Part shown: piece by piece, positions 13,533 through 54,150 of the stretch | Numbering within the stretch: position 1 is the first letter of the stretch | How the letters are laid out: every line of letters starts with the position of its first letter | NCBI GenBank assembly: GCA_963665095.1 | Contig: OY762069.1 | Span: 2,912,001-2,976,000 of the forward strand | DNA length: 64,000 nt | Source of the DNA: an uncultured Desulfobacter sp. | Lineage (GTDB): Bacteria > Desulfobacterota > Desulfobacteria > Desulfobacterales > Desulfobacteraceae | Direction of reading: 5' to 3' | Program-made: the position numbers and the translations under genes | The notes under the pieces: model-generated | The model's database searches: none | The model's input: the letters and a program-made list of their open reading frames with translations, nothing else | Told to the model about the DNA's origin: nothing

Positions 13533-13662
13533 ACCGAACGTGGAGTTGAGGGGCCAGGCTTTTTAAACCCCAAAACTACCGATAAAAAGTTAAATCTTCC
13601 CGAACCAGGGACTTCCGAAAGCCGCTCTGTCGGCCTGGCCCCTCTCCACTGCTTTGTTCTGC
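13533..13662 (-). repeat. Integron attC site (130 bp)
   Basis: R'' GCAGAAC 8 nt after the hydrolase stop; arms AGGGGCCAGGC/GCCTGGCCCCT; R' GTTCGGT. Confidence 0.85.
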
Positions 13663-13670
13663 GCTAATCC

Positions 13671-14525
13671 TTACGAGTTTATATATTCAAGCACCATAGG
13701 CCATATTTCCTTTTTTGAATTTTGACTGGCTATAAGCCTAGGGTGATTATAATCTTCCGAATAGCCTGTAGCCTTTGAACACAAAACGTATTTTTTCTGG
13801 GTGCTGCCTAATGATTTAAATATTTGTTGGCATCCCTTCGGAGGCGCAATTAAATCGCGTTCCCCTGAAATCAAAAGCGTCGGTATACGAATATTTTTTA
13901 TAGCCTTGTAATAATCAAAGCCATCTTTGCCAAACCAGTTCCCAGAGCGATTCCATTGACACCATTGATTTAAAAAACCTGATATTTCATCTTCTGGCCC
14001 CAACCCAAGCAATGGTCCGGGAATTTTTCCCCAAATTTTAATAACTAAAGGGACAATCCTTGTGCTTAGCTTGCCGGTCCAGGTTTTGCCAGCGCCAGTT
14101 GTTTGTGAACCGATTCCAACAAGCGTTGCGATTTCATGTTGTTTGTTAAGATTTCTTGCCATATATATGAGCGGTAAAAAACCGCCGCCACTATGAGCAA
14201 CCCAAATGCAGGAAGTTTTATTTGTCTTTGCCAAGATAGTTTGAATTACCGCTGGAACATCATGCAGCGCAAAATCTTCGGCATCAGGATACAACTCGCC
14301 GTATTCACTAAGCCCATGCCCAACCCATTCATAAATCCAGCACTCAAATCCATTACGGTTCAAAAACGTGGCCAGATTTGAACAAATTTTTGCGTTGGAG
14401 AAAGTGCCATGCGTCAATATCACTGGAGGAAAAGAACTTGATGGCTTTGAATATCGATATAGTGCAATTAGGCTACTGCGTTTCCCTTTAATAAAAATAG
14501 GTTGTGGTAAAAAGTTTTTAAGCAT
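13671..14525 (-). CDS. Alpha/beta fold hydrolase (gene cassette)
   Basis: LTHGTFS, AHSGGG nucleophile elbow, GERDLIAP, DYNH; AT-rich; followed by attC. Confidence 0.85.
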   Translation of the reverse strand: MLKNFLPQPIFIKGKRSSLIALYRYSKPSSSFPPVILTHGTFSNAKICSNLATFLNRNGFECWIYEWVGHGLSEYGELYPDAEDFALHDVPAVIQTILAKTNKTSCIWVAHSGGGFLPLIYMARNLNKQHEIATLVGIGSQTTGAGKTWTGKLSTRIVPLVIKIWGKIPGPLLGLGPEDEISGFLNQWCQWNRSGNWFGKDGFDYYKAIKNIRIPTLLISGERDLIAPPKGCQQIFKSLGSTQKKYVLCSKATGYSEDYNHPRLIASQNSKKEIWPMVLEYINS

Positions 14526-14567
14526 TGCTATTTAATCGATTATTTATACAGTTGTTTATTTTTGAAA

Positions 14568-15565
14568 ATCGGGTAGCCGGGGGTAGTTATCTACCCCAGG
14601 CCCCCTCAGAACCGTACGTGACAGTTTCCCGTCATACGGCTCAAGCATTTCTAAGACTAAGCCTTGCGGGGCCGCCCGGTTGTTTCAGCAATAATGAAAT
14701 TTACAGTTAATTCATAGCATATGTCCTTGAGCATTCTCTCGGAAAGTACTGTTCTTTTTCCGAGTCAAAAGAAAATGCATCCTTTTGAAAGAACCTCTGG
14801 CGTATATCCCGTGTGCTACTTTAACAACCTTTGCGATACGTATCTACAGTCTTTTAACAGCGTAAAGCTGCTAATGGGCGCACCAGCCATTGCCGTCATT
14901 TGCTTTCCCATCCTCAAAGATTCTCCAAACTCTCTCACAAAGAAACACCTGCCCGGGTGTGTCTGTAGTCACACCCGCCGGACGTCAGCTCCCTTTCGGG
15001 CCGGGTAATGTTGGGGATATACGCCTCAATCCGTATCCATCTCATTACAAGACGGCATTCGCTTTTTCCTGCATCTTACGCCCGCACCTCCATCAGTGTG
15101 CCTTACGGTTTCACCTGCCGAATACTCCCGGCGAAGATACGGGGTTTCCACGTTCCGCATTATTGCCAATTTATGGATGACTTAGGTCTGCCCTTAAGCA
15201 CCGGCGGCGCAACATCTCCGTGCAGGCAGTTCCGAAACCTGCAACCTGACCGCTCACCTTTTGGTCCAAGCTTACCAGCCTCTTTAGCTTGTTCTCCCTG
15301 ACGGTACTTACGGAACATTCAATTAATTTGACCATATCATCCAAACCCTTGCCCTCACCCGGATTGAGGCTTCCAGGAGGGTATCCGCCTCACGGCTTTT
15401 ACCCCTTCCGCAGTTGCGGAATTCGGTACTTTGTCGGTTGGGCTTCACACCGTTGCCGGATGCACCGGCAACCGCATGCCACCTAGGGTACCGGCAGGAG
15501 AATGCCGGGTTTGGTCAGGACCGACCGGCCCGCCAAACAGCCAATAATGCGACCTCGTGTCGCAC
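14568..15565 (-). ncRNA. ORF-less group II intron (IIB/CL-like), 998 nt
   Basis: 5' GTGCGACACG; domain V GAGCCGTATGACGGGAAACTGTCACGTACGGTTC (14609-14642); domain VI with bulged A, ending CCCGAT; only short IEP remnants in domain IV. Confidence 0.9.
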
Positions 15566-15690
15566 AGAAACGGGGAGCTCAGCCGCCCGGAGCGAAAACC
15601 GAGAACTTCCCAAAAATTAAATTTTTCAAAAACCAAGGTCTTTCAAAAAGCCGCTATCTCTCCGGTTCGGCCTGCAGCGTTTTGTCCTAA
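15566..15690 (-). repeat. Integron attC site (~125 bp; R'' variant GAC; intron inserted after GTTTCT)
   Basis: TTAGGAC-AAAACGCTGCAGGCCGAACCGGA...TCCGGGCGGCTGAGCTCCCC-GTT; similar to the 16710 site. Confidence 0.8.
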
Positions 15691-15909
15691 TTATGATGAC
15701 CAAGTTAACGATGGCCTACGATTTGATTGAACACAATCTCGTAAATAGAGATTAATCAAATTTTGATAGGGAACGCCTGTTTCTTCCGCCAGTTCTTTAA
15801 AATATTCAATGATATCGACGCTCATCCGAATGGTAACCTGTTTTTTCAAGTGTTTCGCATAAGGATTTTTACGCCCTTTCATGTTTTCAAAATCATATTC
15901 TTTCCTCAT
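15691..15909 (-). CDS. brnA: BrnA/CopG-like antitoxin
   Basis: MRKEYDF...KKQVTIR...YFK..AEETGVPYQNLINLYL, directly downstream of brnT. Confidence 0.85.
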   Translation of the reverse strand: MRKEYDFENMKGRKNPYAKHLKKQVTIRMSVDIIEYFKELAEETGVPYQNLINLYLRDCVQSNRRPSLTWSS

Positions 15910-15913
15910 GATG

Positions 15914-16198
15914 TCACCTATAGTACGCTTTTTGTTCTTTTTTAGTTGCTTTCCTGGCTGAAATAATCCGTATTATGGATTCACTATCCCGATAACAATG
16001 GCATACAGCCAGGATTTTAAGGCTTTGGCTAAAACCTAAAAGCAAATATCTTTCTTCATCAAGGGAATAATCAGGGTCGTCAAATTCAATTGCATTATCA
16101 TCAAAGAAAATCGTTTGGGCGTCTTCAAAAGAGACCCCGTGTTTCTTTAAATTGTTTTTGTTTTTTGCATCATCCCATTCAAAAATCAACTTATTCAT
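15914..16198 (-). CDS. brnT: BrnT family ribonuclease toxin
   Basis: FEWDDAKNKNNLKKHGVSFEDA...EERY...IRIISARKAT. Confidence 0.92.
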   Translation of the reverse strand: MNKLIFEWDDAKNKNNLKKHGVSFEDAQTIFFDDNAIEFDDPDYSLDEERYLLLGFSQSLKILAVCHCYRDSESIIRIISARKATKKEQKAYYR

Positions 16199-16233
16199 AT
16201 TTACACTGTAAATATATCATAATGATGTGTCAA
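16197..16233 (-). promoter_or_regulatory. Sigma70 promoter of brnTA with palindromic operator; likely leaderless mRNA
   Basis: TTGACA-N17-TACAGT, then 6 nt to ATG; perfect inverted repeat ATATTTACA-N-TGTAAATAT at 16197-16215. Confidence 0.8.
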
Positions 16234-16841: not shown

Positions 16842-18243
16842 GTGTGCCGGGCACGGTACGTGTTCTTAAAAGTGAGTCAAACGTAAACGATTTCAATGCG
16901 TTTGGCAAGTCTTAGACCCAGCCGGATGGAGGCGAAGGGTGTAGTGGTAGTGCAACGGGGTACCGGTGAAGGTGCTTCGGGGGGAAGCCGCCTTGCTGAG
17001 GCAAGGTACCACGAAGGTACGGGATGACGTACAGGAATCGGATATAAGACGCACATACCGGGACGAGCCTGCACAACAAGGTGAAGTCCTCTATCCATTA
17101 CAGGGTATGTCCGTAAATCCGGCATTCACGTACTGAAAGACACGTGTTTACCCCGGGAGATCTCCCATGTGCCGGATTGGCTGAGGGCCGGGTAACTGGT
17201 CCTGACCGCATGGGAGAAGTCAGCAGAGGGCATAGTAGTCGGAGGAAACGAGCCCTGCAAACCAGGGAGGACTCACCCCGGTGAAGGCCTGAACGGTGTC
17301 CGGGCCGAATGGTCCGGGTAAATGATAACGACAAATAGGAGATGTGTACTTGTGAATAGATCACCACAGCAGTTGGAACTGTTTCCAGCGTCACAAATTG
17401 CCGAACGTATAGGAAACAATGCCCGGTTAATGGAGATAATTCTTGAACCTAACAACATTACCCTGGCATGGAAGCATGTCTGTGCAAACAAGGGTGCCCC
17501 AGGAGTGGATGGCATGAAAACCAGCCAGCTCGGCAGCTACCTTGCAAAGCACTGGCCTGAAATCAAACAAGACCTGCTGGAATGCAGGCACCAACCGCTG
17601 CCAGTTAAAAGGAAGGAAATCCCTAAACCGGATGAAAGGTAATATGCCAATATTTAAGAGCCGGCGTGATGGTCGCAGGCATCACTGTGACCACGGAAGA
17701 GGGAACTCCCCAGGGAGGTCCTCTTTCACCGTTGCTGTCCAATATTGTGCTTGATGAGTTGGACAAGTAATTGGAGAAACGAGGACATAAATTTGTCCGA
17801 TATGCCGATGACTTCAGGATTTACTGCAAAAGCCTGAAAGCAGCCCAGCGGGTTATGCAGAGTATCACTCGGTTTCTGACCGTGAAACTCAAGCTCAAGG
17901 TAAACCAGGATAAGAGTGCTGTAAGCAGACCGTGGATAGGTAAATTTTTAGGATTCACATATTTTCAAATGTGTGGTCAGTCCAAAATTCGGGTTCATGC
18001 CAAGAGCATGAAACGGTTCAAGGACAAGGTCCGGGAATTAACCTGCCGTAAACGGGGCAAAAGTCTGTGGCAAGTGATCCAGGACTTGAACCAGTATTTC
18101 CGAGAGTGGTGGGGATATTTCCGGCTCACGGAAACCCGCTATTTTCTGAAAGAACTCAAGGTCTGGATACTGCGACGGTTGAGAAGTCTTGTTTGGAAAC
18201 AATGGAAAAACCCTGGGACCAGGGTCCGTAACCTGGAAAAACT
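16842..18243 (+). mobile_element. Group IIC-attC intron, degenerate and 3'-truncated
   Basis: Begins GTGTGCCGGGCACGG right after TTGT of the attC bottom strand, antisense to cassettes; GAGAAGTCAGCAGAGGGCATAGTAG segment; domains V/VI absent. Confidence 0.85.
17322..18243 (+). pseudogene. ltrA: Group II intron reverse transcriptase/maturase pseudogene
   Basis: NKGAPGVDG, EIPKPD, then a deletion, GTPQGGPLSPLLSNI, in-frame TAA, RYADDF, domain X; truncated. Confidence 0.88.
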
Positions 18244-18365
18244 AATGACTCCGACATCTGAAAATATCGTATTGCCGTCAGGTTGTGCATGTGGATGTTC
18301 CGATGTCATCCCTAATAGCATTAAGCCGTTTCATACCCATCAAGTAATCGAACTGCCTGAAATTA
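18244..18365 (+). mobile_element. IS66-family transposase fragment (zinc-finger region)
   Basis: PSGCACGC...HTHQVIELPEIK resembles the IS66 TnpC N-terminal region. Confidence 0.5.
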
Positions 18366-18970
18366 AATAGTGTAAAATTCTTTCTGTAAAATTGAAAAAC
18401 ACCCGGTAGAAATGGATCTGCCCATATAGGGTTGAAAGTGCCGGGTCATGACTTAAAGTTCCTTTTTTTAACCCGCTAAAATCAAAGAAGGGAACAGCAT
18501 GACCCAGCTTGGACAAGATACAGCAATTGAAACGGTTTTTGAAATAATAAATGAGAATGGTTTAGACGGCTTGGCAGAAGCAGTGTCCATTTTAATAAAC
18601 GAAGCGATGAAAATAGAACGATCTGCGGCGTTAAATGCCCGGCCTTGGGAACGAACAGATTGTCGCCAAGGGTATGCCAATGGATTTAAAGACAGGACAG
18701 TGGCCTCCCGGTTGGGCAATCTGAGCCTAAAAGTTCCCCAGGTGCGTGGAGATGTTGAGTTTCAACCCTCTGCCATAGATAAAGGTCTTCGATCCGAGAG
18801 GGCTTTAAAAATAGCCATGGCAGAAATGTATATCCAGGGTGTGTCCACGAGGAAAGTCACGGCCATGCTTGAAAAGATGTGTGGTTTGGAAGTCAGCAGC
18901 ACCCAGGTCAGCAATGCCTCGAAGCAATTGGACGAAGAGTTTGATAAATGGCGAAATAGGCCACTTGGCA
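18366..18970 (+). mobile_element. IS256-family element, left end with truncated transposase (CDS from 18499)
   Basis: AGTGTAAAATTCTTTCTGTAAA IR-like end; GYANGFKDR, LKVPQVR, MYIQGVSTRKV, WRNRPL, then unrelated sequence. Confidence 0.85.
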
Positions 18971-53869: not shown

Positions 53870-53934
53870 ATAGGTATTCTCCTGGATAAAACTGTTTTCC
53901 AGGATTGTCCTTCCAGCAATCAATCCTTATAAAC

Positions 53935-54150
53935 TCGCAAGGCAGGCTTTCCGGCTGACGGATCATCCCTTTGGGTTTTGCGCCTTCCCCCTGCAGCCCG
54001 GTATTTCCAAACTGCAAAAGTGGCATCCTGCAAACCCTGGTCCCCGGTCACGGCAACGGCTGGCATGCAACGGATTCTCACCGTTTTTCCTATTATTCGC
54101 TCCTGAACCCCGATAATTTTCCGGTTTTAGAAGCAGACACCTTAACGAAG
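53935..54150 (-). promoter_or_regulatory. Cobalamin riboswitch
   Basis: AGGTG...AATAGGAAAAACGGTGAGAATCCG...GCCGTGA...GCCACT...GGGAAGG...AGCCGGAAAGCCTGCC. Confidence 0.9.

Follow-up and report, generated by a model that had tools for sequence, protein, structure and literature searches.

A gene-less group IIB1 intron in a Desulfobacter cassette array and its clade at the R' core of integron recombination sites

The closest described relative of the intron reported here is UHB.I2, a sense-oriented IIB1/CL1 intron lying directly after an attC site and represented by one full-length metagenomic case (Sonbol and Siam 2021, PMC7923331). In the accessible parts of that paper its authors saw no conservation of the exons, found no EBS3 and speculated on a role for the hairpin; a IIC intron in the attC top strand is also cited there. 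The accessible parts of PMC4424553, PMC8876359 and PMC3001079 mention only IIC-attC introns for integrons. Besides UHB.I2 our literature search returned no non-IIC attC intron of this kind, and the search, which most subscription papers lay outside of, gave no description of the clade, the ORF-less family or the attI targeting presented below. A sense IIB1/CL1 intron after attC is thus not the first of its kind, there being, in the literature as accessible to us, this one prior published case (PMC7923331).

We analysed a 64,000-nt stretch (the window) of the genome of an uncultured Desulfobacter sp. (G000). Its minus strand carries a GTGCG...CCCGAT intron of 998 nt (15565..14568), set into an attC R' box behind its sixth base and in the sense of the cassettes, with a 5' exon that ends GCTCCCC-GTTTCT and a 3' exon that begins TTTCAA. 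The site and the cassettes around it comprise the following elements.

15566..15688, minus strand: attC of the upstream BrnT/BrnA cassette, top strand, identified by inverted arm and attC profile; left end approximate
15566..15571, minus strand: IBS1 GTTTCT, the first six R' bases
15573..15578, minus strand: IBS2a (G, -13) and IBS2 (CTCCC, -12 to -8), in the L'/spacer part of attC
13671..14525, minus strand: downstream cassette gene, an alpha/beta hydrolase of 284 aa, starting 42 nt past the intron
about 13537-13663: the hydrolase cassette's own attC
15691..16233, minus strand: upstream BrnT/BrnA cassette, with a sigma-70-like promoter at 16233-16205

The attC has the R''-L''...L'-R' architecture with complementary arms; its R' box GTTTCT reads from 15571 to 15566, and its R'' is degenerate, TTAGGAC instead of ...AAC (GAC for AAC). 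The 113 nt upstream of the intron contain an attC-type inverted arm (p = 0.02, 100 shuffles), and the site matches an attC profile, built including this same site, with E 3.6e-27. Exon sequences and inverted arm bear out the initial annotation, which had placed a sense insertion at the right end of an attC on the top strand, but its right limit of 15590 overshoots and takes in 25 nt of attC, the intron's own right limit being 15565. Empty alleles of other cassettes confirm the intron boundaries, exactly in one case (L042) and with slight R' differences in several others, and target duplication is absent in the exact case. An empty allele of the hydrolase cassette itself was not found: the gene is matched in 15 of 160 family genomes, and 12 homologous loci examined by eye have no attC or R' context in their flanks. 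This gene, a cassette here and without attC context at those 12 loci, is possibly a recent cassette recruit.

The array in the window has three attC sites and no intI nearby; the intact intI of the genome lies far off, at C1:910 kb. The promoter at 16233-16205 is the likely source of transcription into the intron, presumably by readthrough. We take the IntI crossover to fall between the G and TT of R'. The intron lies 3' of that point and so should travel with the downstream cassette, an expectation that agrees with the carriage proposed initially. Also in the window are an IIC-attC-type intron (16843-18370, plus strand), inserted antisense after TTTTGT in the array's first attC, with its RT in pieces and an IS256-family transposase fragment following at 18499, and a cobalamin riboswitch (53924-54127, minus strand; Rfam, 64.7 bits).

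The window intron is a complete, canonical group IIB1 ribozyme, with a GUGYG start, the AGC triad of domain V, the bulged A of domain VI and an AY end.

14568..15565, minus strand: ORF-less group IIB1 intron, from Rfam, copies in G000 and relatives, and boundaries against empty alleles
14568..14642, minus strand: domain V (AGC triad) and domain VI, bulged A at 14574
14642..14911, minus strand: domain IV remnant, in which the start and end of the parent RT ORF are joined by several deletions, out of frame
15497-15501 with 15215-15219, minus strand: alpha-alpha' tertiary pairing, both-side changes in 4/5 pairs
15366-15371 with 15277-15282, minus strand: beta-beta' tertiary pairing, both-side changes in 5/6 pairs
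15229..15234, minus strand: EBS1 CGGAAC, from covariation, register shift and stem covariation
15294..15298, minus strand: EBS2 GGGAG, 5/5 Watson-Crick with IBS2, covarying at one register, at the EcI5-homologous position
15300, minus strand: EBS2a C, pairing G-13, by the rule of PMC8643678 as given in its accessible part
15195, minus strand: probable EBS3 A, pairing IBS3 T at 14567, a weak assignment

Rfam matches on the intron strand cover domains V and VI (14644-14568, 69.8 bits) and D1-D4-7 (15509-15351, 98.9 bits), the RNA fold has a z of -6.3 against 20 shuffles, and none of the three sense frames stays open for more than 72 codons, all in keeping with the complete-looking ORF-less ribozyme first described. 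A terminator-like hairpin lies within the intron (14945-14960, minus strand) and could cut read-through were the intron unspliced. Across 30 aligned domain I sequences the 67 named pairs are paired in 96.6%, 45 of them with both-side changes, a level reached by none of 500 shuffles and compared with 35-43% in slid controls. The domain I layout is IIB1 and aligns with EcI5. Together with alpha-alpha', beta-beta', a 6-nt EBS1 and an EBS2 in a multibranch loop, this refines the IIB-like class of the initial annotation to IIB1 of the CL1 lineage; the CL1-type RT assignment concerns the parent protein only and was made by domain matches and comparison with EcI5. The top-strand, sense position at R', the presence of EBS2 and the 6-nt EBS1 set the intron apart from group IIC-attC, whose members lack EBS2, have an EBS1 of 3-4 bp and insert antisense into the bottom strand at R'' (TTGT/T).

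Sixty-four distinct 5' junctions were gathered through matches to the intron or to its RT and independently of attC, of which 62 could be scored and two were left out for too little exon. GTT lies 5-7 nt upstream in 56/62 junctions, compared with 1/25 outgroup CL1 introns, and 36/62 exons have a significant inverted arm. The six junctions without GTT consist of two with GTC after GCTCCCC, one with ATT at a short degenerate attC, one tandem and two short fragments elsewhere. In a quick tree, built from 53 of the 62 RT sequences after nine partial or duplicate rows were dropped, the R'-type RT proteins (25, plus one with unknown exon) form one clade (SH-aLRT 97). This intron clade has an unusual target, the R' core of integron recombination sites. 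Two members, L018 and L019, each have a divergent intI-like ORF at a distance of about 110-130 nt, that of L018 passing the integron integrase cut-off, and occupy sites with no inverted arm that are putative attI; L022 shows attI-type pairing by eye, with no intI on its short contig.

Other mobile elements sit at the left side of attC sites. A second CL1 lineage (SH-aLRT 100; G000:C1:115675-117800, minus strand, and L073-L075) is inserted in sense about 15 nt after an R''-like AAC and therefore within the left part of attC, and in L001 (6051-8215 and 11247-13200) elements with a tyrosine recombinase and an IS91-family transposase occupy attC left ends of the main array.

The exact position within the target can be read from the pairing. 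EBS1 CGGAAC, as initially annotated, occupies an 11-nt loop closed by a covarying stem, and five of its six bases pair with GTTTCT (four Watson-Crick and one wobble). In 44 junctions with full domain I (truncated, low-identity, one outgroup and one 10-nt-exon row were dropped), the three variable bases of EBS1 form 46 Watson-Crick pairs against 33.9 +/- 3.1 expected (28 unique combinations, p = 0.00015), in permutation tests that, like those below, ignore relatedness. Where the loop is of the ...AACG type, with AAC moved by one base, 8/8 introns insert one base earlier; the remaining 36 comprise 30 that insert at -6, five at -7 and one without GTT. EBS3-IBS3 is Watson-Crick in 11/18 (p = 0.04), a weak result from an ambiguous alignment.

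For EBS2 the initial proposal of GGTGAGC (15252-15258) did not hold. Its 6/7 complementarity to the exon is present, but five of the seven bases lie within helices: GGT closes a small hairpin that EcI5 also has at the equivalent position, and GC starts the helix below the alpha' loop, with both-side changes in 5/5 pairs. It shows no covariation either (15 unique intron/exon combinations, p 0.41-0.50), and folding thus upheld the EBS1 position and not that of EBS2. An interim reading of the lineage as lacking EBS2 and reading the hairpin was dropped once the published rule was applied, which in the accessible part of PMC8643678 places EBS2 three bases after helix ID(iv) and EBS2a mid-three, then A. 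Applied to EcI5 as a control, the rule gave 5/5 pairing and recovered the published U-A at -14. In the window it gives EBS2a and EBS2, which pair 6/6 with G-CTCCC at -13 to -8. EBS2 covaries strongly (72 pairs against 44.3 +/- 5.0, 27 unique combinations of 43 junctions, 0/20000 shuffles) at only one of seven registers, and EBS2a pairs in 14/27 against 8.8 expected (p = 0.005). The match is perfect in 14/17 of the window intron's lineage, and the EBS2 variants of L018 and L019 pair 5/5 with two different site sequences. Several relatives pair poorly, with 1/5, 0/5 and 2/5 Watson-Crick pairs in L046, L091 and L001; in L023 an attI-type EBS2 faces a site that it matches poorly, and in L046 GGGAG faces a mismatched one, both of which would fit carriage by IntI with the cassette. 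The covariation of EBS1, EBS2 and EBS2a argues for the sequence-guided route envisaged at the outset.

Searches for copies in this genome and its relatives showed 5' exons that mostly carry the GTT core of R'. The host genome holds two further copies of the same element (C1:944709-952607 and C1:3907494-3914029), each interrupted by insertions, a differently deleted copy with an RT remnant (c4, 942207-943211), two intron fragments and, more distantly related, a full-length intron encoding a 497-aa RT (928454-930707). The near-identical copies with both ends lie at attC R' boxes in 4/4 cases, and all five introns with both ends (window, c2, c3, c4 and the full-length RT intron) lie 6-7 nt after the R' G. 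Separately, a 139-nt 5' fragment of this same intron (G000:C1:707643, minus strand) occupies an attC that is short and degenerate (R' ATTATG) and bears a IIC-type 5' end as well. Intron matches occur in 57/161 family genomes, many of them truncated copies, with full-length ORF-less copies at 93-95% identity in G022, G037, G098, G112 and G113. No viral contig matched the intron 5' pattern, and none of 661 matching plasmid records covers 80% of the intron.

The parent element is present in relatives. It is 2.3 kb long, 93% identical over the first 692 nt, and encodes an endonuclease-less RT of 528-547 aa with RVT_N, RVT_1 and GIIM domains, no HNH match and 50% identity to the EcI5 protein. Deletion breakpoints are identical in ten ORF-less copies from seven genomes, before nine different 3' exons, and a sister lineage of 934-943 nt has lost its ORF independently. 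The loss of the ORF with retention of the ribozyme supports the initial view of a non-autonomous intron. Intact parent ORFs stand alongside ORF-less copies in G098, G112 and G113. A search of G000 for an intact parent ORF returned only the c4 remnant, so that the cognate maturase expected elsewhere in the genome was not borne out; the nearest intact protein, the resident 497-aa RT, is 55% identical to the parent's, and its element shares the parent's sequence around the start codon, which makes service in trans plausible. G096 has two ORF-less copies of the sister lineage and no CL1-type protein above 34%. That genome also contains more than 20 near-identical 446-aa RT ORFs (G096:C1), 33% identical to the CL1 parent and of IIC-attC-like size, a large recent expansion. 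At L039 (G112:C1:4187788-4191082) a full-length intron is directly followed by an ORF-less copy minus its first three bases, which are found upstream, and one intron seems to have inserted in the other's 5' end.

Direct traces of splicing are sparse. Fourteen RNA-labelled runs had small shares of matches, three of which were looked at, as contigs, and depth is not evidence here. An RNA-library contig from a relative joins the intron 3' end to its 5' end via one extra base, C on the intron strand, resembling the intron circles with the first base of exon 2 described in the accessible part of PMC4770220. A 949-nt RNA-library contig, also from a relative, stops exactly at the intron 5' boundary; both of these contigs may derive from DNA, and no ligated-exon joint was seen in the contigs of the three runs. 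In a metagenome contig (L113, 1152, minus strand) the intron 3' end is directly joined to the 5' end, a tandem or a circle junction. With both RNA-library contigs coming from relatives, and with a tandem DNA junction on record in L113, the evidence for splicing is weak. One RNA-library contig of run X4 (place 15565) has a non-attC 5' exon, either an ectopic insertion or an RNA chimera.

We consider it probable that the intron, non-autonomous as it is, arose by deletion from an endonuclease-less CL1/IIB1 retroelement whose clade has specialised on the 3' core of integron recombination sites. Intron RNA bound by an RT supplied in trans would pair with the top strand via EBS2a, EBS2, EBS1 and EBS3 (13 positions, 12 of which pair here) and reverse splice after the sixth base of R', with EBS2 tuned to the host's attC spacer or, in a sister lineage, to attI. 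Retrohoming of this kind would presumably be primed at replication forks. The intron would end up as the 5'-most part of the downstream cassette, in an intergenic position and the transcribed orientation, from where it could be spliced from read-through RNA and moved by IntI along with that cassette.

How far pairing suffices is the first point on which other readings divide. Sites scoring at least 12/13 with wobble number 520 in G000, and 151 have at least 11 Watson-Crick pairs like the window site (the scoring left the intron in place at occupied sites, and IBS3 is misread there); pairing alone is therefore not the full explanation of the attC preference, and protein contacts, single-strandedness, hairpin or selection must add specificity. 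It is possible, if on balance doubtful, that pairing sets the exact position and that site choice further requires the hairpin of the attC top strand, or single-stranded DNA there, mirroring IIC-attC. The inverted arms in more than half of the scored exons agree with this, as does the 9-base core GCTCCC-N-GTT, which occurs 56 times in G000 and is occupied at 4/9 attC sites and 0/47 places elsewhere (Fisher p = 0.0003). With the spacer C fixed, however, the contrast shrinks to 4/9 against 0/7 (p = 0.09), and purifying selection, or protein contacts, in the L' box could account for the remainder. Relatives at putative attI pair perfectly without an arm, and a folded hairpin would be expected to hide IBS1 and IBS2. 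That the intron is a chance insertion or decayed relic with no target preference is extremely improbable: truncated copies are indeed many, but the GTT bias, the covariation and the single clade speak against it, and the target bias already refutes it.

A further reading is that the ORF-less form is immobile: full-length parents would have done the homing, recombination between copies would have passed on the deletion, and the cassettes would owe their movement to IntI and horizontal transfer. We regard this as unlikely. A tree of 5' halves has ORF-less and full-length copies intermixed, forcing at least three changes, and recombination has thus contributed to the spread of the deletion. The absence of an intact parent from G000 and G096, the insertions in two of three G000 copies and the presence of one cassette carrying the element in both G000 and G022 would also follow. 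Against immobility, the three G000 copies cluster (SH-aLRT 92) yet occupy three different cassettes, and DV, DVI, alpha, beta and the ORF-start region are intact. EBS1 CGGAAC is moreover confined to ORF-less copies, and 4/4 of those that have it lie at R' boxes whose fourth base is a pyrimidine, compared with 1/13 for other EBS1s, counts that are not independent. We accordingly retain the reading of a deletion derivative served in trans.

A more ambitious extension of that reading, which we think rather unlikely, is a second and fully base-pair-programmed integron intron system, in which one clade would retune EBS2 to each host's attC spacer or to attI and would repeatedly spawn gene-less passengers that move in trans. 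IBS2 and IBS1 lie on opposite sides of the IntI crossover, the former upstream and the latter downstream, and every reshuffling of cassettes would present the intron with a new partner to pair with. If the extension is right, splicing, and with it the expression of the cassette behind, would depend on the place in the array and on a maturase gene at another locus.

Introns that in nature recognise attI or the conserved GTT core of attC offer a ready model of how site-specific retroelements adjust to targets that are repeated yet variable, and the EBS/IBS assignments supply exact compensatory pairs. The intron could also affect cassette expression and shuffling. Group IIC-attC introns such as S.ma.I2 share the attC targets and even the same arrays, one starting at window 16843 (plus strand), but in the accessible parts of PMC3001079 and PMC7923331 they have IIC RNA without EBS2 and insert antisense into the bottom strand at R'', dependent on the hairpin. 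A separate IIB1 clade thus reaches attC on the opposite strand, through ordinary base pairing. EcI5 and other IIB1/CL1 introns share the domain I layout and homologous EBS2a/EBS2 positions, with a protein 50% identical to the parent's; EcI5 homes to one unrelated site, in contrast to the repeated, variable recombination core here (Monachello et al. 2021, PMC8643678), and the accessible part of that paper lists a few cases with IBS2a at -13, as here. The ORF-less introns served in trans in Thermosynechococcus elongatus and Trichodesmium are likewise non-autonomous IIB-type ribozymes beside RT-bearing relatives (PMC8643678, PMC12584367, PMC4424553); in the accessible parts of these sources they are not described as integron-targeting, and in the present case the host genome lacks the cognate RT. 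UHB.I2 comes closest, with IIB1 RNA, an endonuclease-less CL1 protein and a sense position immediately after attC (PMC7923331), and the small hairpin recurs, by eye, in its printed 5' 400 nt, together with an EBS1 loop that is 11 nt long and of the ...AACG type; the comparison covers its description and printed sequence. Relative to the accessible account of UHB.I2, the present locus adds an ORF-less multi-copy family, a clade-wide target, covariation of EBS1, EBS2 and EBS2a and relatives matched to attI, and answers the question left open there in favour of pairing, though not of pairing alone.
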